Shown one piece after another: positions 546 to 42,350 of a stretch of 64,000 nucleotides of DNA. A program made the translations under genes and the position numbers. The DNA is from a virus (taxonomy: Duplodnaviria; Caudoviricetes), in the IMG/VR virus record IMGVR_UViG_3300021400_000552, positions 1-64,000 of that record. One strand, given 5' to 3'. Each line of letters starts with the position of its first letter. Position 1 is the stretch's first letter. The notes under the pieces were generated by a model. The model was not told the origin of the DNA. It worked only from the letters and a program-made list of their open reading frames with translations, and searched no databases.

Positions 546-965
546 ATGGATATCAAACAACTAATCAAGATCCAATGCATCAAATCAGGAAACATCCCCC
601 TCAACGAAGTAGCGCGTCGCTGCGGCTGGTGGAGCGGCAACATTACAAAGCGCCTGAACAACAACAACTGGGCCATCGAAGACCTCCAGAAAATTGCAAC
701 AAACGCCCTAGATTGCGCACTATTCGTGGCCTTTAAGTACAAAGACCAGATCACAACAGCAGATTCCATATCCGACATGATCAAGATCCAGTGCATATTA
801 TCCGGCGATATACCGCAAAAAGAACTGGCCTCCCGTCTAGATATTGCCCCCGCAATGCTCTCACACCGCATGCGCAGAGATCGTTGGCGCGTACCACAGC
901 TTGAAGAAATAGCATCCGCCCTGGACTGTGAGTTAATCCTGGAATTTCGTCCCATATCTAAATAG
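546..965 (+). CDS. Tandem XRE/Cro-like HTH transcription regulator
   Basis: Two internal repeats (IKIQCI.SG.IP..E.A.R ... W....L..IA..LDC.L); AAGGAG SD. Confidence 0.75.
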   Translation: MDIKQLIKIQCIKSGNIPLNEVARRCGWWSGNITKRLNNNNWAIEDLQKIATNALDCALFVAFKYKDQITTADSISDMIKIQCILSGDIPQKELASRLDIAPAMLSHRMRRDRWRVPQLEEIASALDCELILEFRPISK

Positions 966-980
966 CCCTCCTCATTTTAG

Positions 981-992
981 GAACATTTGTTC
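981..992. promoter_or_regulatory. Gram-positive LexA (SOS/Cheo) box
   Basis: GAAC-ATTT-GTTC followed by G, matching GAAC-N4-GTTC, intergenic and upstream of the recombinase. Confidence 0.6.
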
Positions 993-1118
993 GCGTTCCT
1001 ATTTAAAATACCATCTTTGAATATATAATGCAACCATTTTTTTGTTCTATTTAGTAGACATTTTCCGCTAAAAGTTGACATTTTTCCGCTAAACGGGGGC
1101 ATTTCAACCACCTCCCCA

Positions 1119-2808: not shown

Positions 2809-2941
2809 GAGGCCGTGACGTAACTTCTCAGCGACTTAAATTGCTATATTGATTAATTTACTTATAAAATATAATTTTTAGCTTAAATCTAATGCCACGC
2901 GTATTTACATATAACATTTTTAAGAAAGGTAACAATACAAT

Positions 2942-3208
2942 ATGTTTTCATATACCACTACTAATGCCAGCATAAACATATACGGGGAAACGACCAGATC
3001 ATGGAATGTGCCAGGTTCATCAACAGCGAGCATAACATATCCTGATGAGTTTAATGCATATTTTACAGGTAATGATATAAATTGGGAATTATTACATACC
3101 TTGTGGCGACCATATGACAAAACAAAACAGGCGGCAAGAAATTGTAGCAAGAAAAATAATAGTCGGCAATTAAATTCAGAAGACCTATTAAATTTTTTGG
3201 AAAGTTAA
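2942..3208 (+). CDS. Hypothetical protein
   Basis: ORF with AGAAAGG SD, co-oriented. Confidence 0.5.
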   Translation: MFSYTTTNASINIYGETTRSWNVPGSSTASITYPDEFNAYFTGNDINWELLHTLWRPYDKTKQAARNCSKKNNSRQLNSEDLLNFLES

Positions 3209-3360
3209 AGTTATGCGCGCAGCGCACGCAAGCGTCAGCTGGCTGGGCGGACGCCCATGGCCAGCCAGGTGGCGCGCTCTTTAACTATAAATAGATCTTA
3301 AAAATAATATTGTTATCAATATTATTTAAGATCTTTAAGATAGTTATGTCAACATTAGCA

Positions 3361-3456
3361 GAAAGAAATCTTCTACTTATGCTGACATAAGGTATGAAAG
3401 AAATCTTCTACTTATGTTGACATAAGGTGTGAAAGAAATCTTCTACTTATGCTGAC
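3361..3456 (+). repeat. Three 35-bp tandem direct repeats (candidate iterons)
   Basis: GAAAGAAATCTTCTACTTATG(C/T)TGAC at 3361, 3396, 3431; internal CTTATG..CATAAG palindrome; inverted partial copy at 3344-3355. Confidence 0.85.
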
Positions 3457-3528
3457 GGGATTTGTAAAAAGTAGAAAGTTTTATACTGTATCTTTTATGG
3501 AAATTTTAGGCAGAAAAGAGGTGGTGGA

Positions 3529-4428
3529 TTGTACAAATTTGAAATAAGAAACAGTTTTATAAAATCTTTCGACAGCGATATGCCGGATTCAATTTATCAT
3601 TACGAGCCGGAACTTGACCCGGAGATTATAGAGGGGCGGCTGCTTGTCAACGCATATTTATATGCGCATGTAAATCACAGGTGGTACGTCCCCACTACCC
3701 CACAACATATGTTGCAGTATCTCGGAGTTCGTACAGGACAGCAGAATTGGCGTACGAATGTAGGAACTCGTGTTGTAGATAAGGGGTTGCGATGGATGGC
3801 GCAGAACGGATTTATTAACTTTGATGATGGTGTGGCGCCTTCTATTCTTGAACATAAATACCGGGACGCAATAGTTATATATGTTAATGAGTCTTTATTT
3901 GATATGTACTGTGTGCAGATCAAAAGAGCGCAGCCGTATATCAGATTATACCAAAGCGACATTGAGAAGATCTTTTCCTTGAAAAAGGTAAAGACATATA
4001 AATTGTTTCGCATATATTGCTATCTTAGATCATGTATGCGCAACGCGCCTCCGTTTGGCTGGGTCGTGACTCATAAAGAAATTGAAAATGCGACCGGGTA
4101 TGATAGGACGTATATTTCGCGGGCAACTCAGATCTTGTGCGATGAGCTCGGCGTATTACACAGACAACAATTGCGCCGCATAGGGGCCAACGTCCCACCA
4201 TACTGCTACATATTTAATATTGACGGATGGGAAAAGTATTTACAGCAATCGATCAACCAGTTATATGGTGGCAAAAATTCAAGCGCTAAAGTTTCAGACA
4301 AAAAGAAAGCCGAGAATGGTGAAAAACCGGCAGAAGAAAAAAAGCGCAAAGTGTTTGATGATGGATCACAAGAAGTGATGCCGGATGATTTGCCGCCAGA
4401 CATACGAAAGGCATTTTATGGATATTAA
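3529..4428 (+). CDS. Winged-HTH protein, putative replication initiator
   Basis: HTH-like THKEIENATGYDRTYISRATQILCDELGVL; lies directly after the repeats; TTG start with GAGGTG SD. Confidence 0.5.
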   Translation: MYKFEIRNSFIKSFDSDMPDSIYHYEPELDPEIIEGRLLVNAYLYAHVNHRWYVPTTPQHMLQYLGVRTGQQNWRTNVGTRVVDKGLRWMAQNGFINFDDGVAPSILEHKYRDAIVIYVNESLFDMYCVQIKRAQPYIRLYQSDIEKIFSLKKVKTYKLFRIYCYLRSCMRNAPPFGWVVTHKEIENATGYDRTYISRATQILCDELGVLHRQQLRRIGANVPPYCYIFNIDGWEKYLQQSINQLYGGKNSSAKVSDKKKAENGEKPAEEKKRKVFDDGSQEVMPDDLPPDIRKAFYGY

Positions 4429-4444: not shown

Positions 4445-4660
4445 TTGGTGATGTGTAATGGGAATAGGATATGCGCCAATTGTTTATGGATGGACATGTG
4501 CAGCACGTCCGACATGGAAAGTGTTGCGTGTTGCGGCTGCGATTATTATGATTGCGATTCCGTGAATTGTGGACATGAAATTATGTGGCGCGATGAAATC
4601 GATAAATTTATACAGGAATGGTATAGGTACACTACGCAATACGATGGGTTTTGCGGTTGA
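4445..4660 (+). CDS. Small Cys-rich hypothetical protein
   Basis: CANC..C..CCGC..C; exact start uncertain. Confidence 0.55.
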   Translation: MVMCNGNRICANCLWMDMCSTSDMESVACCGCDYYDCDSVNCGHEIMWRDEIDKFIQEWYRYTTQYDGFCG

Positions 4661-4689
4661 ATTATTAACAGTATAAGAAACGAGGTTAT

Positions 4690-4947
4690 ATGGATAGAAA
4701 AACTTTCATCATTACTATGCGCGTTGTACACAACGCATTGTTCAAGCTGCACGCTCCGGCCAATGTCGAGGAAGGACAGGTCCTCAACGATCTAATCGAT
4801 ACATACATATCTATGATCGCCGGGTTCCACAAATGGCTTTATACAGAGCTTCGGACTTTTCTGTTATCACATAAAGATATTACAGACGAAGATCTTGGGG
4901 ACCTTTACGACACGCTTTCAACGGAACCCGCCGGAGTTGATCAGTAA
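4690..4947 (+). CDS. Hypothetical protein
   Basis: ORF with GAGG SD, co-oriented. Confidence 0.55.
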   Translation: MDRKTFIITMRVVHNALFKLHAPANVEEGQVLNDLIDTYISMIAGFHKWLYTELRTFLLSHKDITDEDLGDLYDTLSTEPAGVDQ

Positions 4948-4959
4948 GGAGGTGTTGAT

Positions 4960-7683
4960 ATAGCATTAGATAAACAAATCCATATGTACAGTGTTGATAC
5001 GACGGCATTTTTGACGCGGCGCGAATATAAGCTGAATGGCAAGAAACAGCAACTGGAACGCGAAAAGGCCCGCATCGACGATATGATCGATCATTTAAGG
5101 ATCGAGATAGATGATATTATACATAATAAAGAGGCTGCCGATCAGATCCGCCAACATATCGGCCAGGTGGAACTATATTTTTATCAAAATGACGGCCTGT
5201 TCACTGTTGAACAGATAGATAAGCTGCTTCGTATTAATGAGCGCTATAACATGCTGTATCATTATCGTCAAATGAAGATTGATAAGATCAAGGCGGTCAA
5301 GGAACAAATACACGACACTCTTAACGAGGCAATCGAAAAAAACAAATGGCGTCAGCATAAAGTGTTGCGCAGATTGCGCCCGGATGCGCTTGTGGAGCGA
5401 AATGTTATCTCTAATTTTGAATCTTCCCTCTCTCGTATTCTTGGGATAGAAACTAATACGCTGACGCTTGATTTAATAACGATCGAGGTGTTTTACGAGG
5501 AATGTGCGCAACAGCTTATTAATGATGGTTTTACATATAATGGTGAAAAATATGTGTTCTTCGCCGCTTCAGCCGGGCAGATACGGACCAAGCGAACTGT
5601 ATTTATAAAAGAATCCGTATTACAGGAACACGAAGACACATTGACTTGTGGTTTATCGATTGACGACATCAATGCTCGCGGTGGTGTAAATGTGAATAAG
5701 TTTTTGGCGTATTATGCGCTTTCTGGCAGTGCTACTGATTGGTGGGAAGATTTTGATATAGATCGTTGTATAGTCGTGCCGGATTTTGCTTCAACAGTAC
5801 ACGGGGTCGTAGACCACGTAGATGATGTGACATACACTGTGGAGCGCAAAGAAATGGATATTGAGATCGAACACACGGATGGCTGTGGGATGATGCTTCC
5901 GAGTGTTAGTCGCCATAATTTCATGATTCGTATGCCGTGGGTTAAGGGGCTTTTAGCTGTGTTTGATTTCCGGCGATTTATAGAAGAACATGATTGCAAC
6001 CCGGTTATTACAGATGTATGGGGCGCGGAGCATAACGTGATCGATGAGGATATACGAGTTATATTGACAAAGAGTCAGATGAAGATGCACAAATATTATC
6101 CGAGTTGGGATGCATATAAAGATAGTTTTAAAAAGTATCATTGCCAGGCTGGACGGTGCAAGGAAGAGGAAGACTATATATCAGATGCCCAAATCAATTA
6201 TCAAATGCTTCAGACACTTACTGATATTACACAGGAAGAACTTGCGAAGATTGCAGAGCCTGCTATACAGCGTATCGATAATGCGACAAAGAGCATTGCA
6301 GGAATGCTAGATATTATGCGGGCAACAAAAGACAACCAACATAAGTCGCCACTTGAAAAAGCGCTTTACTTATGTCCTGAATTGCTCACAGATAATCATT
6401 GTAAAGAAACCATTACTGAGATCAAGCGCAAGATGGTCAACGAGTATCGTGCTGGCAAACTGCCAGTGAATGGCAAATACACTTTCGTTGTGCCGGATTT
6501 ATATGCTGCGTGCGAGTATTGGTTCTTGCATGAAGAGCATCCGCGCGGACTGCTTGATGATGGTGAGGTGTTCTGCGCGCTATACCCCACCGCTCACAAG
6601 CTTGATTGTCTTCGTGCTCCGCATTTATATAGGGAGCATGCAGTAAGACGCAACTTAATTGATAACATGACGGCAGATTGGTTTAGCACAAACGCCATCT
6701 ATACAAGCTGTCATGATTTAATCAGCAGAATACTCCAGTTCGATAACGACGGTGACACCCTTCTAATCGTTGCAAATCCAACGATTATTAAGGTTGCCGA
6801 GCGCAATATGCGTGGAGTTGTTCCGCTGTATTACGAGATGAAGAAAGCTGAACCAAATATTATTGATCGTAGCAAGTTTTATGAAGGGATGAAGCTTGCG
6901 TGGGCTGGTGGCAAGATTGGCGAACCAAGCAACAACATAACTAAAATCTGGAATGAGGATGAAATTGGAGAGGATGAAGAGTTGGCTGTAAAGCTTTTAT
7001 GCATGGAGGTCAATTATACGATTGATTTCGCAAAAACTCTATACAAAACTAAGCGCCCAGATTGGGTTGACGATTTTCTTGGCCGTTATACACGTAAAAA
7101 AGTCCCCTATTTCTTTCAGGAGGCGAAGGGTAAAGAAAAACACCAAGTATCCGCTATTACAGAATCTCTCGTTAATCAATTGCGTGGTTTGATCAAAAAT
7201 AAGCGTATAAGTTATCACAATCTCGCCCCGTTTGATTATACCTTATTAATGTATGATCGCTCAGTTGATTATTGCGATATGAGGCTTGCTAAAACTTATG
7301 ATGATCTTGCACAGAAATATCATTTTAAATTAGCCCATACGTACGATGAAGATGAAACAAATATCAGTTATATTATCGCGCTTTGTATGGAACAGCTTGA
7401 AGATCTTCAAATTACGATGGAGCAGATGATAGATCAGCTAACATATTACCTATTTAATAAGCGTAGCAAGAAGTCCCTATACTGGTGTTGTTTTGGGGAC
7501 AGGCTAATTGAAAATTTAGAGAAGAACTTAGACAGATCAACACGATGCTGTCTAAAATGTGGTGTTCGTTTTAAGCCGCGTAATAATAGGCAGCGTTATT
7601 GTAGTGATTGTGCGGGTGAAATAAAGCGTGAAAAGGCAAGACTGAGGCAACAAAGGCATCGTGAACGAAACAGAATTACATAA
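4960..7683 (+). CDS. yonO: YonO-like single-subunit (double-psi barrel) DNA-dependent RNA polymerase
   Basis: LRAPH and catalytic FDNDGD (DxDGD) motifs, HTDGCG, C-terminal CxxC..CxxC; SPbeta-like synteny. AAGGAGGTG SD points to ATA at 4960; first ATG is at 4984. Confidence 0.85.
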   Translation: MALDKQIHMYSVDTTAFLTRREYKLNGKKQQLEREKARIDDMIDHLRIEIDDIIHNKEAADQIRQHIGQVELYFYQNDGLFTVEQIDKLLRINERYNMLYHYRQMKIDKIKAVKEQIHDTLNEAIEKNKWRQHKVLRRLRPDALVERNVISNFESSLSRILGIETNTLTLDLITIEVFYEECAQQLINDGFTYNGEKYVFFAASAGQIRTKRTVFIKESVLQEHEDTLTCGLSIDDINARGGVNVNKFLAYYALSGSATDWWEDFDIDRCIVVPDFASTVHGVVDHVDDVTYTVERKEMDIEIEHTDGCGMMLPSVSRHNFMIRMPWVKGLLAVFDFRRFIEEHDCNPVITDVWGAEHNVIDEDIRVILTKSQMKMHKYYPSWDAYKDSFKKYHCQAGRCKEEEDYISDAQINYQMLQTLTDITQEELAKIAEPAIQRIDNATKSIAGMLDIMRATKDNQHKSPLEKALYLCPELLTDNHCKETITEIKRKMVNEYRAGKLPVNGKYTFVVPDLYAACEYWFLHEEHPRGLLDDGEVFCALYPTAHKLDCLRAPHLYREHAVRRNLIDNMTADWFSTNAIYTSCHDLISRILQFDNDGDTLLIVANPTIIKVAERNMRGVVPLYYEMKKAEPNIIDRSKFYEGMKLAWAGGKIGEPSNNITKIWNEDEIGEDEELAVKLLCMEVNYTIDFAKTLYKTKRPDWVDDFLGRYTRKKVPYFFQEAKGKEKHQVSAITESLVNQLRGLIKNKRISYHNLAPFDYTLLMYDRSVDYCDMRLAKTYDDLAQKYHFKLAHTYDEDETNISYIIALCMEQLEDLQITMEQMIDQLTYYLFNKRSKKSLYWCCFGDRLIENLEKNLDRSTRCCLKCGVRFKPRNNRQRYCSDCAGEIKREKARLRQQRHRERNRIT

Positions 7684-7882: not shown

Positions 7883-7957
7883 TGCGGGGTAATTCAGTAG
7901 CAGAAGGCCAGCCTCATAAGCTGGAGGTCGAGTGTGCAAATCGCTCCCCCGCATCCA
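7883..7957 (+). tRNA. tRNA with CAT anticodon (Met/fMet/Ile2; atypical)
   Basis: Acceptor TGCGGGG/CCCCGCA, anticodon arm CCAGC-CTCATAA-GCTGG, T arm GAGTG-TGCAAAT-CGCTC, encoded CCA. Confidence 0.8.
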
Positions 7958-7995: not shown

Positions 7996-8072
7996 GGCAC
8001 GTTAGCTCAGCCAGGTAGAGCGGCGGACTGTTAATTCGCGTGTCCTAGGTTCGAATCCTAGACGTGCCGCCA
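7996..8072 (+). tRNA. tRNA-Asn(GTT)
   Basis: Acceptor GGCACGT/ACGTGCC, anticodon arm GCGGA-CTGTTAA-TTCGC, TTCGAAT T loop, G discriminator, CCA. Confidence 0.92.
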
Positions 8073-29473: not shown

Positions 29474-31242
29474 TTGGCTGAAAATATTCATGTGCATGTA
29501 GTTAACGATGCACACTTGACAATACGGGAACTCGAAAAAATATTTGCTTACGATGGTAAAACTATCAATATCCCGATCGTAAGTAATGCCGCTGAAATTA
29601 AGGCCGATTTACGACATATCTTTAATCATAATAGAAAATCCGTTAAAATTAAATTTGATGCAGAAGGATTGAAAGATATTGAGAAAAAGATGGATAAAAT
29701 TAAAAATTTTGATCCATCTAAGACTATATCAAAAGCGGCTAAGGCTGGCGGCAGTAAAGGCGGCAATAAAGCTAAAGATGTGTTTGCTGGCCAAATAAAG
29801 ACATATCAACAAGGTGCGCTTAAGTTGCAAAAAGCAATGACGCAAGTTAATCGGGAAATCGCGGCTGCTGAGAAGTTTTTATATAAGAACACTGGCGCAC
29901 TTGGTACTAAGCAGGTTCAACAGTTAACAAAGCGTAATACTGAAATGCGCAAATTATACGCCAATATGGAAAAGGCGTATAAAGACACATTTAGTAAGGG
30001 TGGAACTGACAAGCTCGGTGATAAAAATCGTGGCGTACTACAAGGGTTGCTTGGAGATGCTGATAAAGCAATTACTGGATCGCGAAATCAGCGTTCTGCG
30101 CAAAGTTTAGGGTTAAGTCAATATGCCGCCACTATGAATAAGGATGTTAACTCTATTGTTAATACTCTTACAAATGCACAGGGGCAAATTCGCGGCAAGA
30201 TCTCTGGTTTGCAAAAGATTTTAGATTCAAGCGGTAAACACAACCTCAGCAACGGAGATATTTCACGTATGCGCACTGAGGTTGAAACCCTAAAAACGAG
30301 TCTGAAAGATATTCAAAATCTACAAACTCAAATACCAACTAAAGGCGCACAAGGCAAAGGCGTTCTGGGTGATGCTAATGTAGCAAAACAAGTCGAAGAA
30401 GTGACTAAGGGGTATGAGCGTGCAATAGCATCTGCAAAAGGTCTAACATCTGAAATGAATGGCAAGCTTGGAATAGCCAATGCCATGGATAATCAGATGG
30501 TCTATTTTGATAAAATGGGCGCCAAGATGTCAGACTATTTTACAAAATTTGGACATAATTTGCAAAAAAATGCTCAGCTTTATGATAGATTCTTAACGTT
30601 ACAGAATAAAGCAAATAATGGTCAGTTTGCTTCAATTGGAGACGCAAATACGCAGTGGGCGCAGTTTCGTACGGAGGCGAGATCCGCTGGAGTTGAAATT
30701 GATAGTTTTGGAGCCAAACTAGAAAGAACCTTTGGTAGTAGAATCAGATCCGCAACAGCTGGTATGGGTGTATTTGCATTACAAGGTGTAGTTCGTGACA
30801 TTGTGACGAATGCTCGTGATGTTGATACAGCGATGACCGAGCTGAAAAAGGTCACAAATGAAACTGACGCGACATACACGCAGTTCTTGGACAATGCTGG
30901 AACACGTGCTCAGAATTTGGGCGCAACACTCCAGGAAACAGTAAGTGCAACGGCAGATTTTGGGCGTCTTGGATATGACATTGAAGACGCGACTAAACTT
31001 GCGGATAACGCACTTATCTATCAGAATGTCGGTGACGACATTGACAACATCGATGAGGCGTCAAAGGCGCTTATTTCAACGATGCAAGGGTTTAATATAC
31101 AAGCTGATGATAGTGCTCAGATTGTAGATAAATTTAATGAAGTTGCGAATAACTACGCTTCTTCAGCTGGTGATATCGGTCAGATTACTCAGCGAAGTGC
31201 TGCGGCTATGTCGGCGGCAGGCAACTCCTTAGATCAGACCAT
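29474..31242 (+). CDS. Tape measure protein, exon 1
   Basis: TP901-type TMP core DTAMTELKKV..FGRLGY..VDKFNEVAN..AAGNSLDQT; ends on U of the 5' splice site. Confidence 0.85.
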
Positions 31243-31493
31243 AAAATGTTGTGGCTATGGTTGGTGACAATCATAGAAAACCCGTCTAAACATGGAAACC
31301 CCTATTGGTATAGGGCAACCAAGTGCTAATATAAAAGCTAAACGACTATCTCGAAAGAGAGTACACTGCAAACTACTGGTAGTGGAAACGGCGGGGCTCT
31401 AATACAGTTAGAGCATGATATAGTCTTTTCTGCATGGAAACATGTAGCTGTTAATAACGGGCGTGATGTGGTGAATCACGTTGAAAATGAAAG
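31243..31493 (+). ncRNA. Group I intron 1 (IA2-like, no ORF, 251 nt)
   Basis: P1 CCAU/GUGG with U-G at junction, P2 with GUGA loop, R AAACGACUA, S GAUAUAGUC, P7.1/P7.2 hairpins, terminal G; splicing restores the frame. Confidence 0.85.
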
Positions 31494-31533
31494 TGCATTG
31501 GGAGTTGCAGCTAACGAAGTTCAACAGGATGCT
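31494..31533 (+). CDS. Tape measure protein, 40-nt exon 2
   Basis: Encodes (I)ALGVAANEVQQDA, bridging ...DQT and DTVGTALKT in frame. Confidence 0.85.
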
Positions 31534-32516
31534 TAATTTTAGGCGTCCAAGACAGAGATGTCTTGGATTATTACACCTTTGAATTGCGGGAAACTCCATA
31601 CGTAACATGTATGGACAATCCGCAGCCAAGCCTCTATATAGAGGAAGGTTCAACGACCATCCCAATTGGGAGTAGGATGCAAGCGATTGGTATCCGAAGC
31701 GGAGGTGGCGCTAACATGTAGTGATGAGCGTTAAGATATGGTCTGTACTTGTAGGTAACTATAAGATTATTTGCATCATTCGGAAATGGAGATAATTTAT
31801 TTATACTGTTTATGAACATGTTTTCCCAAACGGGAAAAGATATGTGGGTATTACGAAACAGCAACCTGAGCGTAGATGGCAAAATGGATATGGTTATCCA
31901 CTCAATAAACAGCCATTAATAGCAAAAGCTATTAAAAAATACGGTTGGGAAAATATTACTCATAATATACTACATCAAAATCTTACTTATGACGATGCTC
32001 AAAATTTAGAAAAGTATTATATTGAGAAAAATCATTTGACAAATCCAAACTATGGTTATAATTGTACGTCTGGCGGTGATGCGCCAGCATATAAAGTTGG
32101 ACGACCAGTGATTTATAATAATCATATATATAAATCACTTAAAGACTTTTGTAATACATTCTCACTAAGCACTAGAACAGTTGGGTCGTGGCTTACAGAG
32201 GGTGTACCAATGGACCCGAATTATTATGATCGAGGATTGCGATATGTTGATCAGGATCGCGAAATTATTCGAGGAAAACGCTCGTTTAAGCGTAAAGTAA
32301 TATGCGATGGTGTGATATATGATTCATTACGTGATTTTTGTAGGCAACATAATATTAACAGTGGAATATCACATTGGTTAAGTGGAAATAAGGGTATGCC
32401 AATATATTGGTATAATAAAGGATTGAGGTATCTAGATCAGGACTTCAATGAAATTAAACAAGCTAAGAAAGATGCAAATAATAAGTGGATGTAGCGAGTT
32501 CACTTTAACGTTCTAG
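31534..32516 (+). ncRNA. Group I intron 2 (IA2-like, 983 nt, carries a homing endonuclease)
   Basis: P1 GGAUGCU/GGCGUCC, P AAUUGCGGGAA, Q AAUCCGCAGC, R UUCAACGACCA, S AAGAUAUGGUC, terminal G at 32516. Confidence 0.9.
31799..32494 (+). CDS. Intron-encoded GIY-YIG homing endonuclease
   Basis: YTVYEH.FPNGKRYVGIT..RRW..E..YI..GYN; two C-terminal NUMOD-like repeats; probable ATT start after GGAG (track start 31844 cuts the motif). Confidence 0.85.
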   Translation: MYTVYEHVFPNGKRYVGITKQQPERRWQNGYGYPLNKQPLIAKAIKKYGWENITHNILHQNLTYDDAQNLEKYYIEKNHLTNPNYGYNCTSGGDAPAYKVGRPVIYNNHIYKSLKDFCNTFSLSTRTVGSWLTEGVPMDPNYYDRGLRYVDQDREIIRGKRSFKRKVICDGVIYDSLRDFCRQHNINSGISHWLSGNKGMPIYWYNKGLRYLDQDFNEIKQAKKDANNKWM

Positions 32517-35500
32517 GATACAGTAGGTACGGCTTTAAAAACCATGAGTATGCGGCTTAGAGGTTCTAAGACGGATGTAGAGTCGGCGGGTCTTGATGCC
32601 GAAGGTATGGCAACGTCTGTATCTAAACTTCGTGATGAGATAATGAGTTTGTCTGGCGTTGATATAATGCTGGATGATAATACTTTTAAGTCCTCTTACG
32701 ATATTCTTATGGGTATTGGAGAGGTTTGGGATGGCCTAACAGATGTTAATAGGGCAAATATTACTGAATTATTATTTGGAAAAAGGCAAGCTAACATTGG
32801 TACGGCTATTCTGCAAAATTATGAGCGTGCTCAAGAAATACTTGAAACATCACAAAATTCCGAAGGTAGTGCACTTCGCGAAAATGAAGTATACCTAAAT
32901 TCTTTACAAGGTCATATTGATAAATTGCAAGCAAAATGGGAAACATTTTCTGTTGCGCTTGCTGATTCATCTGGCTTAAAGGCATTAATTAACCTCGGTG
33001 GTAGAGTTATTGATACCTTTACCGGAATGACAAATGTTTTTGGCAGCGCGACAATGGTGTTAACCCCCCTCATTGCGGCAATGTCAAAAACTTCAAATTC
33101 TGGATTATTTAAAACTTATAATAAGTTAGTCAATGCAGAAACCGGCGCGGTTGAGGAACGTGTTGGAACAGCTTGGACGGCAAATCGAGAAGAAAAAATA
33201 ACTCGTACAGCGCAAGCACGAACAGCACATGCAGAAGACATGCGCCATATTAACAACGTTGCGTCCTATATGGATTCATACTCCAAGGGAGACAAGTCGC
33301 AAGAAAGTTGGTTAAAAACCCAAGAAAAAATTAATGCCGAAATGGAAGGCATGGGTAAAGAGGCCAGAGTTGCCGCCAATTCTATGATGCAGTATGGCGA
33401 TGACATGGACAAAGTGAACAATATTGGCAAAACATTCGACAAAGATGGTCAGAAACGAGTTGCCAATCTTGAAAAACAAAATAAAGGGTTTACGGGATTT
33501 GCAAAATCAACAACCGCCATGTTTGGTAACATCGGTGCATCTCTTGCTATAGGGGCTGGCATAACAGGTGCCATGGAAATTATTAGTGCTTTAGATCAAA
33601 GTATGAAAATTTCAGATGGTGCTAGAAAAGATGCCATGGAGCAAACGATTGACACATATAATAAATCTACAGAAAGCGCAGCTGAAAACAAAAAGACGAT
33701 TCAATCATTAGCGTCTGAATATAGAACACTTGCACAAGGTGTTGATTCTCAGGGACGCAATGTAAGCTTAACTGCGGATGAATTTGCGCGATACAATGAG
33801 ATAGTCGATCAATTAGTATCCATCTCCCCTTCCCTAATTCGCGGGTATAATAAAGAGGGTCACGCGATTATTGATCGCAATAATGCGATTAAGGATGCTA
33901 TAGATTTACAAGATGAATATGCAAAGGCGGCAACTAGCCGATATACATCTAATGAATCTATGCGTGACATTATAAATGGTGCACGTATAAACGTTGACGA
34001 TGCTTTAAAGGATTCGCGCTCATCTAGTGTTGAACTTGGTAAAGCTATTGGCTTGGATGCGCGTGAGCGTGGAACAATTACGTCTGAACGCGACTTGCGT
34101 AACGACGAAATAACAATTAAGCATGCTAAAGAGATTGATGATGCGCTCGGCCATGAGGTAGACCTACAGCACGCCTCTTCAGCGGAACTTGATGAGATAT
34201 TAGCAAAGCGCGGTGAAATATTAAAAAATACAGAGAAGCAAGCAAAAGCGGATGGTTTGTCCGCAGAGCAAACTCAAAATCGTGTAGATAAAGCCACCGA
34301 GGCTTTAAACACTTTAAGTGCAAATCAAATGGAGGTTGATTCTGCAACTCAACCTATATTGGATGCGCTTCAGGTTTATGCGTCTCAAATTAATGATGAT
34401 ACTGGTAAGTCTATCGTTGATGGATTACCAGAAGCCATGCAAGATGGTTATAATGCCGGACTAAAGGCAATTGCACAAAAAGCTGCAACAGACGATACTT
34501 TTGGTGAAGGACAAGCTAAAACCGCCGCAATGAATCTTGTGGATGAAATGAGCGCAGTATATAATTCTCCAGAATATCGTGAGATTATGTCAAAGGTTGA
34601 AGCGGCGCAAGATGAATTTATGAATAGCGATCGTAATAGGGCCGCTATGGAAAAATATAAAACACAGGTAGCTGGTTTGCAGGATCAGTTACAGGCCCTA
34701 GCCTCTCAATACGAGGGAACGAACGCTGCAATGTTTGAAGGTCTTAGCCAAATGGCTATCGACGTTGGAAATTTTGGACAAGATAATATTCTTTCGCTTG
34801 CGAACGCCTTTAATCCTCTTAAAGATAAAATTGATGAGGCGCGTGATGCTAAATCCAGATTTGACGATGCTATGTCTGGTGGCGATTACAACACCGCTAT
34901 TAACGCGCAAAAAGAAATATATGACGCGATGACAGAGGGCACCAATGACGAAGGCAATGGCACAATGGCCTTTTGGACTGGTGCTGAGGAAATTCTTGGC
35001 AAGGGAACCCTTCGAGACCTTGGATATGATATCGACTCCGTAAAAACAAAATTGCAAGAATGGGCGCCAGCAATGAAAGATACGGAAGCTGGAACGGACG
35101 CTTTATTTGATCAATTTGCAAAATATCGTGATACATTAAACGAAATTGATGGTGTTAATATTGCCGAGGATGGTTCATGGGATATTCCGGCTGAAAAATA
35201 TGCTGAGGTAGCACGCCAACTTGGTATTAGCGAAGATCTGCTGGTGTCTATGGTTGACAATGCTCGTCATTGGGCAGATGTTAAATTGTGGGATAGTCCA
35301 GAAAAAGCCGTTTCAGCAATTAAAGATATGGAGTCTACATATACAGATGCGGAAGGTAAAGCCTATGCATTTTATGACACTGTAGAATCTGAAGCACACC
35401 AAGCTGGACTATCTGGACAAGAGCTTACTGATTATATGTCTGAAATTGGTAAGCAAGTAGAATTAATAGACTTACAAAAGCTTGACTTTGATGCCGGGAC

Positions 35501-38500
35501 AGAAAAGGGTAAGAAAAATATTAAAGAAGTTGCCGATCAACTTATTGGTATGAATTCGGCCCTTGATAAGAACGGCAAGTTAGACCTTACTGGAACAACT
35601 GCAATGTTCAAGCAGATGGGCAAATCTGCTGATGAAACAACTCACGCACTTGAACAATTTGACGCTGCTGGTCTCTTAGATACGAGCGGCTATGATATGA
35701 GCGAATTTGGCGGTGATTTGAGTCAATTTGTTGCACAAGCCTTTGGCGAACTTGATACGAATAATCCGTTTGCGAATATGGAATCGTCTGTTGATAGTAT
35801 GGCGACCTCCATTAATAATCTTGTAGCAACGTTAGGTGGTGTTCCTGAAGATTGGTTGCACATAGATGGTCAATTAGCCAAAATTGATGAAGCCACATCT
35901 AAGGGTCGAAAAATGACCGATGAAGAGTATGAAGGTGCGCGTAAGACTTGGCAAGAAGAGCGACAGCATCAGGGACAGATTCTTCAGAATTCTAATGATC
36001 CCAATCAACGCAGACAGGCGTCTGCTAATATTGAAAGACTTAATAAAAGTGGACAAGCGCTTGAGAAACAGGCATATCAAAATGGTTTAACTACTGAAGC
36101 AGAATTTGAAAAACGTATGCATGGCGCTGGTGCAGATGGTCGTGCCGTACAATATGAAGAAGATGCTACTGCGATTCGTGACTTATCAAGCGCACTGAAA
36201 GAGGCCAGTCAAGATGGAGCAGAACTGGGTACTTCTGCTGAACAAGCGGGCAATAAATTACATGATATTGGCACCGATACTTCTGTTGCAACAGCATTTC
36301 AGAATGTCGAACGAGCTGCTCAGCAAGCAGATATGTCCGTTGCTGATTATATTCAATCTCTATCAAGTGGTAAAGATGAAGCAAATCAGCTAAATGATGC
36401 CTATATGGACTATTTGTCAGCTCGCCAAGATGAATATAGTTCTATGTTGCCAGAAGGGACTGGGCAAGTTTCGATCGAGGTTACGGCCGATGTGTCACAA
36501 TTTGAATCCTCGCTAGATGAAATTGAGGGGTTAAGTGGCGAGCAACACGAGGCTGTTATAAAAGGGGTTGTGGAATTTGAGCAATCTGGTGGTAGTAATT
36601 TAGAAGAATTAACATCTGCACTACAACAATTGCCTCCAGAAGTGCGAACAAATGTTATTGCCCAATTAAAGGAGTCTGGAAATCAAAGCCTTGTTGACTA
36701 TGCTGAAACATTAGATGAATTACCACCAGATGTTGTTACAAATGCGACTGTAGAAACATTGGTGAATTATCTGACAGGTAGTCAGGAGCCGCCAGAGGAT
36801 GGTAGTGCATCTGTCGGTTATGATAATGTAAGTGGTCAAGAACCACCGGAAGATGAATCAGCGTCTATCGCCTATGATACGATTAGCGATCAGGTCCCTC
36901 CAGAAGAAAAGACGGCGCCAGTAAAATATACGTGGGGCGGACAGGACGAGGCACAGCAAAGTACCACCACAGTTCAATATGATAATAGCGGCGCACCAAC
37001 ACTAAACGGAACGGCAAATTATACAACAACTTTTGATACAACAGAAGCGCCACCGCTTCCTGGTTTAGTTACTTATACTGGTGATTATAGCTCCCTAGTG
37101 GCTCCCACGTTACCCGGTACAGCCGTATATTCGACATCCGGGTTGCCGACAATAGCTCCTACAATCCACGGTACGGCAATTTATACAAAAAAGTTTGAAT
37201 ATAAAGGATCCGACAATCGTAGACGTGCATTGTCATCTGGAACCAGTGATAGAAGGCGTTTTCATTCTGCGGCTAGTGGTAAACTTGGTCCAACGGGACA
37301 TGGCGGCCTTACACTTACAGGCGAACTTGGTCCAGAATTAGTTTGGTTGCCAGATGATAACGCTTCGTTTTTAACTGGTTTGAGTGGCCCACAGATACAA
37401 GATCTTCCGGCTAACGCGGTAGTCTGGCCATATGAAGAAACCAAACGAATTTTTGGTGGAACGTTGCCACCTGGAGTGCTTACTAATCGTCACAGTATGG
37501 GGCGTTACGCAGCCTCTCATCTGGGTTCTTCCGCAAAAGGCTCTAATTACAAATTCGGTTCTGTAAAATCTGGAAAGAAAAAGAAGGGTTGGAGCGATTA
37601 TACGGATAAATGGGATTATAAATACGACCTCGAAAGTATTAGCGAGCAGGCATACTATAATGGTCTTCTTCGTATTTATAATAAACGTAAAAGCAAACTA
37701 AGCGGTAAGGAGAAACGTACTGCAAGGAAAGCAATCCATGATGCTTATACTGAACTATTAGAGGCCCAATCTAGTAGTTGGGAAGATGCTGTTGATATCG
37801 GCACTATGTCAGAGGCGACATACTATGGTAAATTAACAGCACAAACTAAACGGTATAGTAAAGGTAAATATGGCAAGCAAACAAAGGCGTATAGAGACCA
37901 TCTAAAGGAGCTTCATGATGCATATAATGATATGGTTGAGGCTCAGGCGGATAGTCTTGATCATAGTTTAGCCATGGGCGGCTTAGATGAAGCTGGTTAT
38001 TATCGTAGGCTTGTTGGTGTAGCAAATAAATATGCGCGTCCTCCTAAGAATGCCGGAAAGTTCACAAAAGAGTATAGAGAATATCAAGAAAAATTAAAAG
38101 AAGCAGCAGACGCAGTATATGATCGTGAGAAACGCGAGATTGATTTTATGCTCGGATTAGGTGTGGGCAAAAATGGTGGAAGATATACTGCGGTAAATGC
38201 TTATAGAGATTTGCAAGCGTATATTCGTAAGGCTATCAATGGTGTTGTAACAAGTAATACAAATACGCGCAAGTTAACGAGTGCCAACTATGTTAGAAAC
38301 TTTCTTTATACTGGAACAAGTAATAGGCGACAACCCATTCCTTCAATGGCTAGAGGTGGTCGGCTTGGACCAAATGGTCGTGGCGGACTTACGTTAACAG
38401 GTGAGTTGGGGCCAGAATTAGTTTGGTTACCAGACGAAAGTGTATCATTCGTTGTTGGTGTAGGCGGCCCTGAGATGGTCAATCTCCCATCTAATGCTGT

Positions 38501-41408
38501 TGTTTGGCCAAATGATGAAACACAACAAATTTTTGGCGATACTATAGATTCGAGTTATTTAGAACCAAACGATGTATTATCAATAGAAGATTTGGAATGG
38601 CTTGAAGAAGTGTTCGGTTCTGGAGCAAATGGTATTAACTATTTCGGTTCCGCATCTTTTGGTAAAAGAAGAAAGTCGTCATCATCTGGCAGATCAAGGA
38701 GTTCGGGATCATCATCAAGTCGTAAGAGAAGAACAAGGAAACGTAGAAGCAGTAAATCTGGTGGAAACTCATCAAATAAGAAAAAGAAAAAGGCTAAAAA
38801 TACTATAGGTCTTGCAACTAGTAAAAAGACTGCTAAAACTCCTAGGGTATATAACCCATTTCGTAAAAAATCCACTAGCAAAAAGAAGAGTTCTGGTAAA
38901 AAGAGCTCATCTCCTACTACGTGGGATATGATGACGGAAGAACAACGTCAACAGGTATTGCAGGATTTGAAGGATGCAAGGCAAGAGGCTTACGATTACT
39001 TAGCTGATACATCTGAAAGAACGCTCAATAATTCTTTAGTTGATAACTGGGGTGCTCTAAATAACTACATTAAAGAAGCCCTATCTAATTTGAACCAGCT
39101 TAACAGTATTGAGGATTATGATAAAATTATTGATGCTCGTCAAGATGTGGTAAATAATTTCTTTAGTAATTTGAACGAAAAATTTGATGATGTTAAGGAA
39201 AAAATTTCTGATAATGATTTGTTTGGTACTTGGGGAGTTGATGAATCGCCAATTACTTTATTGACAGATTATAGGCAACAATTGGTGTCTATATATGCTG
39301 CCAATAAAAATGCTTTAGAAAAAGATACAGACGCAGCTAAGCAATATTTGGCATTGTTAAAAGAGGTGGATCGTGAATTAAAAAATGCTCAAAAGGAAAC
39401 GAAAAATCAGTTTGATGATATTTTCAAACTTGTTGAGCAATTAATTCGGAGAGAAAAACAGGATCTGATAGATGCCCTTGACAAGCAAAAGGATAAATAT
39501 GATGACATCATATCAAAGAAAAAAGAAAGTTTAAGGCTTACAGAAGATGAGCTTAGCTATCAAGATGATCTTACTGATTATGCTAAAGAAGAGACAAAAT
39601 TGCGTCAAAAGATCTCTGCCCTTTCACGTGATGATTCGCGTGAAGCAAAGGCTCAAATGGCAGATTATCAAGAGCAATTAAGCGATCTCTTAGATGAGCG
39701 TAATCGCGCTGTGCGACAAGAAACAATATCGCGTACAAATGATAATCTTGATAAACAACAAGAAAAATATGATGAATTTGTGGACAAATTAAAAGAGACG
39801 ATTCAGGACTTTCTTGATAATCAAGAGCTTGTTAATTCTGCAGTATATGATGCTATTGATAATCGTGAGACTAACAATTTATTACAACGTCTTTATGATT
39901 ACAATGCAGAATACGGAGACGGTCTACTCCAAACTGTTGAAGAATGGCAAATGGATTTGGCCGACGTATTGGCTGCAATGCCAAAAGATATTGTAAGTAG
40001 TATTGAAGCAGTACACGCTGAACTTATTAACGTCGTTGGTTATGGTGATGATAGTCATCTCGGTCGCTATACTGATACAATCACATCTTTTAATCATACA
40101 TTTATTGATGCGTTTGTGAGCGCATCTGATGCTTTGTCTCAAAAGTATTATAAGGAAGGCGAGATGATTGACACTCTTATTGAAAAGTACAGTAAGCTAA
40201 TCAATAAGATGGATGATTTAATTAACGGTAAAATAAGCGACGGTAAGCCAACTGGAAATGAAGCTGAAATGCGTCAACGTATGGCAAATGTTATAACGGC
40301 GCATGAAGATATGAGGACTAGTAAAGATGCTGTCGCAGAAGCTAAAGCTGCAGCAAAGTCAGCACAAGAAAAGGCGGCAAGCGCTGATGATAATGTCACG
40401 GCAAAGCAGAACGCAGTCAACAAAGCGCAGGCATCTGCTGCCGCTGCGAAAAAGGCTGTGAATGATGCTACAACGACAATTACAAAGCTTAAGGCGCAAG
40501 TAGAGACTAACAAAAAGACTCAAGCGAGCAAGCAAGCGGTAGTAAACAAGGCGCAGGCAAATTATAATAGCGCAAAGAGTGCGAAGACTGCGGCAGCAAA
40601 AACAGTTACGTCTTTAAAAAAGCAGGTTAAAGAAGCTGAGGACACATTAGCCGCCGCAAAGAAAAAAGGCGGCAATGCAGCCATCCAGAAAGCAGAAAGT
40701 GCGCTTAAAAAGGTGAAGTCTAAGCTAACTACTGCTCAAGCCACCCTTAAGAATGCAAATGCAAGACTTACAAATGCAAGCTCGAACTTAAAGACAGCTC
40801 AACAAGCATTAGCAACAGCCAAAACAAACACTGCCAAATCTCAAAAGCTTGTGGTCGATAATGTTACTGCATTAAAAGCGAAAAATACCACATTGGCTAA
40901 TGCCAATAAAGCACTTACTAATGCGAAGGCTGCATTGGTCCAGGCGCAAAATAATGCTAAAACATATCATGATGCAGCAAGCACAGCGAACGCAGAACTT
41001 GAAACAGCTGAAGCGAATTTCCAAGAGGCAAATGAATATTTCCAGGCATTAATGAACCAACCATTTGACAACGCGTCTCAATATAGTGTTTTGCAAAATC
41101 AAGGCGCGGTTTTATCACCTACAATACAAGCACAACTTGTGGCGGATGGTACTGCGTCATCTGCGTTGCAAGATACTCTGAACAACCTTGCATCTAGTAT
41201 TGATAATAGCATACAAAACAATACAAATAGTGCGCAAACATTTAACTTCGCGTTTGATATGCCATTTAATGTTGGCGGTGATATGGATGCGTCAACACGC
41301 GCTCAATTAGAGTCTGAAATTACAAATGCGGTATATGCTGGAATTAATAATGCTCTTAGAGCATATGGATTATCTACTAGTGCATCATCAAATGCATTGA
41401 AAAATTAA
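32517..41408 (+). CDS. Tape measure protein, exon 3 (spliced product 3566 aa)
   Basis: VGTALKTMSMRLRG..FGKRQAN; long coiled coils; GELGPE motifs; exon total 10701 nt is divisible by 3. Confidence 0.85.
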   Translation, partial: DTVGTALKTMSMRLRGSKTDVESAGLDAEGMATSVSKLRDEIMSLSGVDIMLDDNTFKSSYDILMGIGEVWDGLTDVNRANITELLFGKRQANIGTAILQNYERAQEILETSQNSEGSALRENEVYLNSLQGHIDKLQAKWETFSVALADSSGLKALINLGGRVIDTFTGMTNVFGSATMVLTPLIAAMSKTSNSGLFKTYNKLVNAETGAVEERVGTAWTANREEKITRTAQARTAHAEDMRHINNVASYMDSYSKGDKSQESWLKTQEKINAEMEGMGKEARVAANSMMQYGDDMDKVNNIGKTFDKDGQKRVANLEKQNKGFTGFAKSTTAMFGNIGASLAIGAGITGAMEIISALDQSMKISDGARKDAMEQTIDTYNKSTESAAENKKTIQSLASEYRTLAQGVDSQGRNVSLTADEFARYNEIVDQLVSISPSLIRGYNKEGHAIIDRNNAIKDAIDLQDEYAKAATSRYTSNESMRDIINGARINVDDALKDSRSSSVELGKAIGLDARERGTITSERDLRNDEITIKHAKEIDDALGHEVDLQHASSAELDEILAKRGEILKNTEKQAKADGLSAEQTQNRVDKATEALNTLSANQMEVDSATQPILDALQVYASQINDDTGKSIVDGLPEAMQDGYNAGLKAIAQKAATDDTFGEGQAKTAAMNLVDEMSAVYNSPEYREIMSKVEAAQDEFMNSDRNRAAMEKYKTQVAGLQDQLQALASQYEGTNAAMFEGLSQMAIDVGNFGQDNILSLANAFNPLKDKIDEARDAKSRFDDAMSGGDYNTAINAQKEIYDAMTEGTNDEGNGTMAFWTGAEEILGKGTLRDLGYDIDSVKTKLQEWAPAMKDTEAGTDALFDQFAKYRDTLNEIDGVNIAEDGSWDIPAEKYAEVARQLGISEDLLVSMVDNARHWADVKLWDSPEKAVSAIKDMESTYTDAEGKAYAFYDTVESEAHQAGLSGQELTDYMSEIGKQVELIDLQKLDFDAGTEKGKKNIKEVADQLIGMNSALDKNGKLDLTGTTAMFKQMGKSADETTHALEQFDAAGLLDTSGYDMSEFGGDLSQFVAQAFGELDTNNPFANMESSVDSMATSINNLVATLGGVPEDWLHIDGQLAKIDEATSKGRKMTDEEYEGARKTWQEERQHQGQILQNSNDPNQRRQASANIERLNKSGQALEKQAYQNGLTTEAEFEKRMHGAGADGRAVQYEEDATAIRDLSSALKEASQDGAELGTSAEQAGNKLHDIGTDTSVATAFQNVERAAQQADMSVADYIQSLSSGKDEANQLNDAYMDYLSARQDEYSSMLPEGTGQVSIEVTADVSQFESSLDEIEGLSGEQHEAVIKGVVEFEQSGGSNLEELTSALQQLPPEVRTNVIAQLKESGNQSLVDYAETLDELPPDVVTNATVETLVNYLTGSQEPPEDGSASVGYDNVSGQEPPEDESASIAYDTISDQVPPEEKTAPVKYTWGGQDEAQQSTTTVQYDNSGAPTLNGTANYTTTFDTTEAPPLPGLVTYTGDYSSLVAPTLPGTAVYSTSGLPTIAPTIHGTAIYTKKFEYKGSDNRRRALSSGTSDRRRFHSAASGKLGPTGHGGLTLTGELGPELVWLPDDNASFLTGLSGPQIQDLPANAVVWPYEETKRIFGGTLPPGVLTNRHSMGRYAASHLGSSAKGSNYKFGSVKSGKKKKGWSDYTDKWDYKYDLESISEQAYYNGLLRIYNKRKSKLSGKEKRTARKAIHDAYTELLEAQSSSWEDAVDIGTMSEATYYGKLTAQTKRYSKGKYGKQTKAYRDHLKELHDAYNDMVEAQADSLDHSLAMGGLDEAGYYRRLVGVANKYARPPKNAGKFTKEYREYQEKLKEAADAVYDREKREIDFMLGLGVGKNGGRYTAVNAYRDLQAYIRKAINGVVTSNTNTRKLTSANYVRNFLYTGTSNRRQPIPSMARGGRLGPNGRGGLTLTGELGPELVWLPDESVSFVVGVGGPEMVNLPSNAVVWPNDETQQIFGDTIDSSYLEPNDVLSIEDLEWLEEVFGSGANGINYFGSASFGKRRKSSSSGRSRSSGSSSSRKRRTRKRRSSKSGGNSSNKKKKKAKNTIGLATSKKTAKTPRVYNPFRKKSTSKKKSSGKKSSSPTTWDMMTEEQRQQVLQDLKDARQEAYDYLADTSERTLNNSLVDNWGALNNYIKEALSNLNQLNSIEDYDKIIDARQDVVNNFFSNLNEKFDDVKEKISDNDLFGTWGVDESPITLLTDYRQQLVSIYAANKNALEKDTDAAKQYLALLKEVDRELKNAQKETKNQFDDIFKLVEQLIRREKQDLIDALDKQKDKYDDIISKKKESLRLTEDELSYQDDLTDYAKEETKLRQKISALSRDDSREAKAQMADYQEQLSDLLDERNRAVRQETISRTNDNLDKQQEKYDEFVDKLKETIQDFLDNQELVNSAVYDAIDNRETNNLLQRLYDYNAEYGDGLLQTVEEWQMDLADVLAAMPKDIVSSIEAVHAELINVVGYGDDSHLGRYTDTITSFNHTFIDAFVSASDALSQKYYKEGEMIDTLIEKYSKLINKMDDLINGKISDGKPTGNEAEMRQRMANVITAHEDMRTSKDAVAEAKAAAKSAQEKAASADDNVTAKQNAVNKAQASAAAAKKAVNDATTTITKLKAQVETNKKTQASKQAVVNKAQANYNSAKSAKTAAAKTVTSLKKQVKEAEDTLAAAKKKGGNAAIQKAESALKKVKSKLTTAQATLKNANARLTNASSNLKTAQQALATAKTNTAKSQKLVVDNVTALKAKNTTLANANKALTNAKAALVQAQNNAKTYHDAASTANAELETAEANFQEANEYFQALMNQPFDNASQYSVLQNQGAVLSPTIQAQLVADGTASSALQDTLNNLASSIDNSIQNNTNSAQTFNFAFDMPFNVGGDMDASTRAQLESEITNAVYAGINNALRAYGLSTSASSNALKN

Positions 41409-41477: not shown

Positions 41478-42350
41478 ATGTTTAAGGAATTAGCCTTTTC
41501 TTTTGATGGCGTTCCATGTGACAAATATGGCCTGATGATTTATTTTATTGATGATTCATCAAATCGTGAGCTTAGTTTGGGCACGGACGTAACGATGATA
41601 GAGGATCGACTCTCCAAGCGTATTGATCCGATCTCATATGGTGTTAATATGAATCAGAGCTTGAGTTTTCCTCTAACATTTGGTAGTACAAGCACATTAA
41701 CTGAGGATGAAGTGGATGCCATTTTAGAATGGCTCACTGGACATCAACAATATAAATGGCTTGAACTATATGATTATGAAAATTACTGTGACCCAGAGAC
41801 GAAACAGCCAGCGATAGATAAGACGCCACAGTATAAACAAATACGAACACGATATCGTTGTCATATTAATCAAGTACAAACGGAATATATTAATGGTCTT
41901 CCATTCGCCTTTTCTGCTACTGTAGAATGTGACGGGCCATTTGGATATGTTTATCCCCCTTCTGAATTTATTTATAGCGCAGGTAATTCTAGTTCGACTG
42001 TAACGCTTGATAATTTGAGTTCGTACAATGGATATCTCTATCCGCAAATGAGACTGGAATTTAGCGGTGAAGTAAAAAAACTTTCAATTGTTAATATAAC
42101 TGATAATAATCGCGAATTCTCTATCGATGCTTCTGAAATGGAAAATGGTTTACAAAATATGATTGTAAGCATTGATAATCAGAACGGCATTATTGTCGTG
42201 GAGAATCGCACTAATATAAACTTATATCCATATTTTAACAAAAAATTCTTTCGCCTTGTGAAAGGTGAAAATGAATTAAAATTTAATACTGATAATGGTA
42301 ACTGCACTATCGTACTATCGTGCGAATGGCGGCGGAAAGTGAGTGATTAA
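41478..42350 (+). CDS. Distal tail (Dit)-like protein
   Basis: Follows TMP; FSFDG..YGL, CDGPFGY, FFRLVKGENE motifs. Confidence 0.75.
   Translation: MFKELAFSFDGVPCDKYGLMIYFIDDSSNRELSLGTDVTMIEDRLSKRIDPISYGVNMNQSLSFPLTFGSTSTLTEDEVDAILEWLTGHQQYKWLELYDYENYCDPETKQPAIDKTPQYKQIRTRYRCHINQVQTEYINGLPFAFSATVECDGPFGYVYPPSEFIYSAGNSSSTVTLDNLSSYNGYLYPQMRLEFSGEVKKLSIVNITDNNREFSIDASEMENGLQNMIVSIDNQNGIIVVENRTNINLYPYFNKKFFRLVKGENELKFNTDNGNCTIVLSCEWRRKVSD

Follow-up and report, generated by a model that had tools for sequence, protein, structure and literature searches.

Tape measure genes are often interrupted, and the tape measure transcript of Vibrio phage ICP1 was confirmed by RT-PCR to comprise four exons and three introns (Barth et al. 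2023, PMC10448857). In prophages of the Bacillus cereus group, Tourasse and Kolsto placed group I introns (i.e., TMP-IVS1, IVS2, and IVS3) at three tape measure sites, and they list the tape measure gene of Lactobacillus phage JCL1032 as intron-bearing as well (Tourasse and Kolsto 2008, PMC2504315). For Staphylococcus phage Twort, three group I introns and exon skipping have been described in orf142 (Landthaler and Shub 1999, as cited in PMC3073962). Multiple tape measure introns, including empty introns beside endonuclease-bearing ones, are already published and experimentally validated.

We analyzed a 64,000-nt stretch of viral DNA (here called the window; positions 1 to 64,000 of IMG/VR record IMGVR_UViG_3300021400_000552). 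The tape measure gene of this uncultured siphovirus-type phage, which encodes a protein of 3566 aa, is very probably split, within the domain that is its most conserved, by two different mobile group I introns that lie 40 nt apart and must both be removed. The features of the locus, together with the insertion sites found in its relatives, are listed in Table 1.

Table 1. Features of the split tape measure gene in the window and intron insertion sites in its relatives (site positions are tape measure residues)
Feature	Position	Strand	Remarks
Tape measure exon 1	29474..31242	+	589 codons plus 2 nt; from the ORF list
Intron 1, ORF-less group I, 251 nt	31243..31493	+	RF00028 match at 31233-31447 (+ strand), 62.5 bits, E 1.8e-13; homolog in L112
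Micro-exon, 40 nt	31494..31533	+	Last base of Ile codon, then ALGVAANEVQQDA
Intron 2, group I, 983 nt	31534..32516	+	RF00028 match (core) at 31524-31765 (+ strand), 102 bits, E 2.6e-25; homolog L113-Y
12-bp helix, 5' strand, AUUAUUUGCAUC	31766..31777	+	Pairs perfectly with 32471-32482
Predicted homing endonuclease gene	31799..32494	+	231 codons if ATT at 31799 is the start; GIY-YIG-type N terminus YTVYEHVFPNGKRYVGIT
12-bp helix, 3' strand, GAUGCAAAUAAU	32471..32482	+	Within the last endonuclease codons; 34 nt before the 3' splice site
Tape measure exon 3	32517..41408	+	2963 codons plus stop
Rfam-supported site	After 540		L008
Rfam-supported site	589/590		This window; L113-X 3 nt upstream
Rfam-supported site	603/604		This window and L113-Y
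Rfam-supported site	693/694		L008 and L111
Rfam-supported site	799/800		L008 and L007
Inferred site (exon alignment only)	After about 500		L113
Inferred sites (exon alignment only)	After 540, 607, and 615		L112

Structure of the split tape measure gene

The mechanical ORF list contains two long ORFs in this region (29474-31267 and 32544-41408). When intron 1 is left unspliced, the frame of exon 1 runs to a TGA at 31265-31267, 8 codons into the intron, and the first three bases of intron 2 form an in-frame TAA; in-frame stops of this kind are a frequent feature of such elements in phages (review, PMC3984707). The ATG at 32544 does not serve as a start; it encodes an internal Met, here and in the relatives. 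Joining 29474-31242, 31494-31533, and 32517-41408 gives 10701 nt encoding 3566 aa with a single terminal stop, and the frame thus stays open once 31243-31493 and 31534-32516 are removed, as the earlier note on this DNA had claimed.

Exon 1 matches PF10145 (E 6.9e-15) and phrog_4211 (E 3.5e-39; profile positions 558-752), and exon 3 matches phrog_4211 (E 5.7e-54; profile positions 769-1137). The phrog_4211 positions run on across the gap, from 752 at the end of exon 1 to 769 at the beginning of exon 3, which matches the size expected for the micro-exon. In tblastn searches, the exon pieces matched SPbeta yomI and other tape measure genes, and the gene that comes next, beginning at 41478, encodes a Dit-like distal tail protein. 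The gene was assigned as a tape measure gene on the basis of PF10145, phrog_4211 on both exons, its great length, and the downstream Dit gene. An annotation of two ORFs plus a stray endonuclease misses the predicted true product, which is one protein of 3566 aa. The locus is of value for annotation in this respect: gene finders split the gene, and a product of this length would predict a very long tail.

Group I cores and predicted splice sites

Both introns exceed the gathering cutoff of RF00028 (50 bits), and both matches span the full model (positions 1-253; Table 1). The check with Infernal and group I models that had been proposed for this locus therefore found two complete cores. The remaining Rfam matches in the window were two tRNA genes on the + strand (7883-7954, 55.9 bits; 7996-8069, 66 bits), and nothing more.

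In the Rfam alignments, P1 of intron 1 pairs CCAU|AA with UUGUGG (31249-31254), and P1 of intron 2 pairs GAUGCU|UAA with UUAGGCGUC. These alignments confirmed the U opposite G at both 5' splice sites, and the junction sequences confirmed the terminal G of both introns. The compensatory change reported for P7 is also present, with GACUA/UAGUC in intron 1 versus GACCA/UGGUC in intron 2, as is the A-A mismatch in P4 of intron 1, which is flagged as noncanonical and is replaced by a G-C pair in the L112 homolog. The U...G rule and the peptide of the intron-free alleles described below fit no other junctions, and both the interpretation and the junctions given in the earlier note were supported. 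By eye, shifted junctions (intron 1 by +1 and intron 2 by -1) yield the same protein but break the U...G rule.

The Rfam alignment places a 38- to 39-nt insert between P7 and P3' in both introns. In the consensus fold, the insert of intron 2 forms two hairpins and that of intron 1 a single hairpin at the P7.2 position, the P7.1 hairpin of intron 1 being a by-eye reading only. The extra hairpins P7.1 and P7.2 that characterize subgroup IA2 were thus found between P7 and P3', finer IA1/IA2 criteria aside. Judged from these alignments and folds, both elements are bona fide group I introns, and they show the IA pattern because extra hairpins lie between P7 and P3'.

Read from the sequence, P10 of intron 1 pairs CAUU with AAUG (micro-exon bases 3-6), and P1 of intron 2 occupies micro-exon bases 32-40. 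These two helices share no bases, so neither order of splicing would be forced; P10 of intron 2 is weak. A megablast search of 31000-32800 against phage records returned no match, and sequence comparisons showed nothing in common between the two introns and those known from phages beyond the conserved core.

Intron-free alleles of the same gene

The exon pieces match tape measure genes of SPbeta-like Bacillus phages, Brevibacillus phage Sundance, Enterocloster phages, and uncultured gut phages. A distance of 42 nt separates the two exon matches in MT837120.1, equal to the predicted 2 + 40 nt, and the spliced junction peptide aligns to this sequence ungapped with 54% identity. The alignment to phage Sundance is also ungapped across both junctions. 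Three contigs that are far more closely related are uninterrupted through both sites, namely, the IMG/VR contigs L007 (68% identity over residues 340-802) and L008 (61-76% identity for the exon pieces) and the metagenome contig L114 (94% identity over residues 542-622, with a near-identical junction peptide). The junction peptide NSLDQTIALGVAANEVQQDADTVGTALKTMSMRLRG is identical in L007 and L008, the two closest IMG/VR relatives. The suggested comparison with intron-less alleles thus recovered the predicted junction peptide, ungapped, in intron-free genes.

A search with the back-translated micro-exon pattern found only the two known relatives in IMG/VR, plus four metagenome contigs. In L007, about 3 kb (about 4600-7640) separates tape measure exons; this stretch contains an ORF resembling a CHAP-type cell-wall hydrolase, with Ser-rich linkers, and may be either a part of the tape measure protein or an insertion.

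Homologs of the introns and clustering of insertion sites

Both introns have diverged homologs in related contigs. The homolog of intron 2 (L113-Y, on the minus strand of L113) occupies the identical site (GATGCT|TAA), is 71% identical by blastn over 494 nt (84% in the aligned cores), and includes the N-terminal part of the endonuclease. The homolog of intron 1 (562-855 on the minus strand of L112) occupies another site, after TCCAT in ..KTMSM|RLRG.., and the 5' exon ends, ACCAU in the window and UCCAU in L112, are both compatible with a single guide sequence. Between intron 2 and L113-Y, 12 pairs are changed on both sides and still paired (in P2, P4, P5, P6, P7.2, P8, and P9), and 13 pairs are changed on both sides between intron 1 and its L112 homolog, each comparison consisting of two sequences only. 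A motif scan of IMG/VR found no further members of the intron 1 family. In L113, a frameshift in a run of A residues disrupts the endonuclease frame; given the 2.6x coverage of this contig, it could be an assembly error.

The 3' tail of intron 1 (31466-31493), in which the fold gives a hairpin (CGUGAU...AUCACG) followed by UUGAAAAUGAAAG, resembles the 3' tail of L008-B (about 4590-4622). This likeness between otherwise different introns hints that peripheral modules are exchanged between families.

At least five Rfam-supported insertion sites, with three more inferred from exon alignments, are found in the conserved stretch of the protein (residues about 500 to 800), which on these alignments is an intron hot spot. 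The three interruptions in L112 and the first in L113 are classified as inferred because they are without support from an Rfam model; a search of L112 with Rfam gave no match, also when relaxed to E 0.01. One of the L112 intervening sequences aligns well to intron 1, and another contains GACCA...UGGUC. The tandem layout is repeated in L113 around a 43-nt micro-exon, where the upstream intron belongs to another family, common to L008-B and L111. In L112, a 23-nt micro-exon is flanked by an intervening sequence that bears an ORF on one side and by the intron 1 homolog on the other. The layouts of these relatives indicate that dense packing recurs, in that related introns occupy different sites and adjacent sites hold different introns.

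Two further observations were made on these contigs. In L113 (about 690-1075, minus strand) and L008 (4240-4625), the predicted 5' splice site follows a C, not a U, and the exon sequence GAGAC is paired with GUCUC as C-G, a pattern found at two different tape measure sites. In L112 (minus strand; 2902-4179 in reverse-complement coordinates), the interruption after ..DAATVG contains a long ORF that shows repeated Cys-x2-Cys pairs and the motif ..IEFDGQQH.., possibly a PD-(D/E)xK-like endonuclease; Rfam reported no intron there.

A broader reading, which we consider doubtful, is that the tape measure core serves as a shared landing pad for cooperating selfish elements in a clade of uncultured SPbeta-like phages. 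The conserved core of 300 codons would offer eight or more insertion sites, among which a few intron families would hop between like 5' exon ends (CCAU for the intron 1 family; GAGAC with C-G for another), and ORF-less introns would survive within co-conversion range (23-43 nt) of an adjoining endonuclease-bearing intron. If true, the locus would be a small ecosystem of cooperating elements and not two independent introns.

The predicted endonuclease gene of intron 2

The catalytic core of intron 2 ends with the P9 hairpin at 31765, and the long-range 12-bp helix follows directly (RNAduplex, -16.9 kcal/mol; reached by 1.3% of 300 shuffles). The endonuclease ORF lies within the loop of this helix, downstream of P9. 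Its translation matches phrog_314 (E 1.8e-19) and phrog_5123 ("with GIY-YIG motif"; E 7e-7) and, in tblastn searches, annotated GIY-YIG endonucleases. The score for the Pfam GIY-YIG family (PF01541) was 22.3 bits, just under the cutoff of 22.6, and there was a weak match to the I-TevI DNA-binding domain. The motifs TVY, YVG, ERRW, LEKYY, and GYN were seen by reading the translation. A sequence search of the PDB with the endonuclease returned a spurious epimerase match only.

Several of the closest endonuclease homologs start with M-Y-(T/S/W)-(V/I)-Y, and the window has ATT at the position of the Met codon (31799), with GGAG 7 nt upstream and a TAA stop two codons upstream. No ATG, GTG, or TTG codon is present in frame before the first endonuclease motif. 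The GTG at 31844 was rejected as a start, as it would remove this conserved motif, which is 75% conserved with L113. As read from these features, the endonuclease may start at ATT with weak translation, or its start may have been lost, and ATT in place of ATG may leave the enzyme poorly expressed or dead. A 9-codon ORF in another frame (MEIIYLYCL; 31786-31815, with ATG at 31786) runs across both GGAG and ATT of the endonuclease gene; this ORF and the missing ATG might limit or regulate translation of the endonuclease.

Proposed splicing and mobility, and alternative explanations

Each intron would fold into a ribozyme that finds its 5' splice site through P1 with its U-G pair, use guanosine for the 5' cut, and then join the exons after the terminal G. 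Both introns would have to leave the late mRNA for the full-length tape measure protein to be made, and a fragment of about 590 to 600 aa would result if either intron stayed in or if the micro-exon was skipped. The computed products are 597 aa with intron 1 retained, 603 aa with intron 2 retained, and 592 aa with the micro-exon skipped; in the last case a stop follows after three codons, in line with the frameshift predicted earlier for skipping of the 40-nt exon. Since both ribozymes must excise, tail assembly would need two splicing events.

The GIY-YIG-type endonuclease of intron 2 probably drives the spread of this intron into intron-free alleles. Intron 1, which is without a gene of its own, would persist by inheritance and would possibly be co-converted upon cleavage of an empty allele by the endonuclease of intron 2. 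Homing of intron 2 and co-conversion of intron 1 are suggested by analogy with T4-type introns and collaborative homing (e.g., PMC2790892), and on this analogy hitchhiking of intron 1 is plausible. It fits the context in L112, where 23 nt separate the intron 1 homolog from a different ORF-bearing intron. Both known members of the intron 1 family thus have an ORF-bearing intron within 23 to 40 nt, a distance that typical co-conversion tracts easily cover, and this proximity speaks against the alternative that intron 1 spreads alone, by inheritance and occasional reverse splicing or recombination into guide-matching sites, with no hitchhiking on the intron 2 endonuclease. Only two members of the family are known, however, and we give independent spread a probability not far below even. 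The like 5' exon ends at the two sites of the family fit targeting through P1, and in L113 an unrelated intron occupies the site adjoining the intron 2 homolog, so that the two introns of the window are not always found as a pair. A comparison was also made of the six bases around site 1: three of the six differ between the window (ACCATTGCA) and the intron-free alleles (ACAATAGCT), which would fit either import with flanking donor sequence or a need for P1 pairing.

The A-A mismatch in P4 of intron 1 and the two ORFs seen by gene callers could be taken to mean that one or both introns are dead and that the locus is a pseudogene or encodes separate N- and C-terminal proteins. This is very unlikely, given that both cores are complete and score above the Rfam cutoff, that their helices are kept by compensatory changes relative to diverged homologs, and that frame and peptide are exactly restored. 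No Shine-Dalgarno-like sequence was seen before the ATG at 32544, where the relatives have an internal Met, and tails cannot be assembled without the tape measure protein. Still less credible is a metagenome assembly artifact joining different phages. The source record is an uncultured IMG/VR contig with an estimated completeness of 65%, but the flanking exons are parts of a single gene and have their matches in the same relatives, and the layout recurs around the same micro-exon in L113, an independent contig that comes from another study. Two introns that both have to be spliced out of one tape measure gene remain the preferred explanation.

Comparison with known systems

The T4 nrdD (sunY) intron with I-TevII and the td intron with I-TevI are IA-type introns with a GIY-YIG endonuclease, and in sunY the ORF is placed after P9 and thus outside the catalytic core, as in intron 2. 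The T4 introns differ in that they occupy nucleotide-metabolism genes, with a single intron per gene; they have no close sequence similarity to the introns of the window beyond the conserved core. A third group I-like match (44.3 bits, below the cutoff) was seen outside the window in the same genome (L006; G000:C1:73467-73649, minus strand), after an endonuclease-like ORF and before a sequence read as an exon of an anaerobic ribonucleotide reductase (nrdD-like) gene. An nrdD gene would be the classic host gene of phage introns.

With its close intron-free alleles, a second contig that shares the layout, and a third whose micro-exon measures 23 nt, the locus adds to the mounting evidence that group I introns find favored homes in tape measure genes. 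It opens no new question, the phenomenon having been validated experimentally in ICP1; its main value lies in correct annotation and in a small set of well-resolved related loci for dense intron packing, which could serve studies of splicing by close-packed ribozymes and of co-conversion of ORF-less introns.

The Twort gene resembles the tape measure gene of the window in having several group I introns in one late/structural gene, and exon skipping is documented for introns that are close neighbors (PMC3073962). The Twort introns are similar to one another, whereas the two introns of the window differ in P1 and P7, which makes cross-reaction less likely; skipping would truncate the protein. 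The B. cereus-group introns, as presented in the tape measure part of PMC2504315, are of the IA1/IA2 type and occupy several tape measure sites. Three features of that account recur here, namely, related introns at different sites with an adapted P1, different introns at one site, and several introns without a complete endonuclease gene (PMC2504315). The B. cereus-group genes differ in that they belong to prophages of cultured Bacillus strains and encode a tape measure protein of about 1200 aa, and that part of the account mentions no micro-exon of tens of bases (PMC2504315).

ICP1 differs from the window in its three introns, HNH-3 endonucleases, and Gram-negative host, and its splicing was observed by RNA-seq and RT-PCR (PMC10448857). 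The window has two predicted introns and a predicted GIY-YIG-type endonuclease, and its relatives are phages of Bacillota. The two systems are alike in their close-packed tape measure introns, with an endonuclease gene in one and empty neighbors; in both, intron content varies between isolates or relatives with splice junctions fixed, and gene callers see separate ORFs where there is one tape measure gene (PMC10448857).
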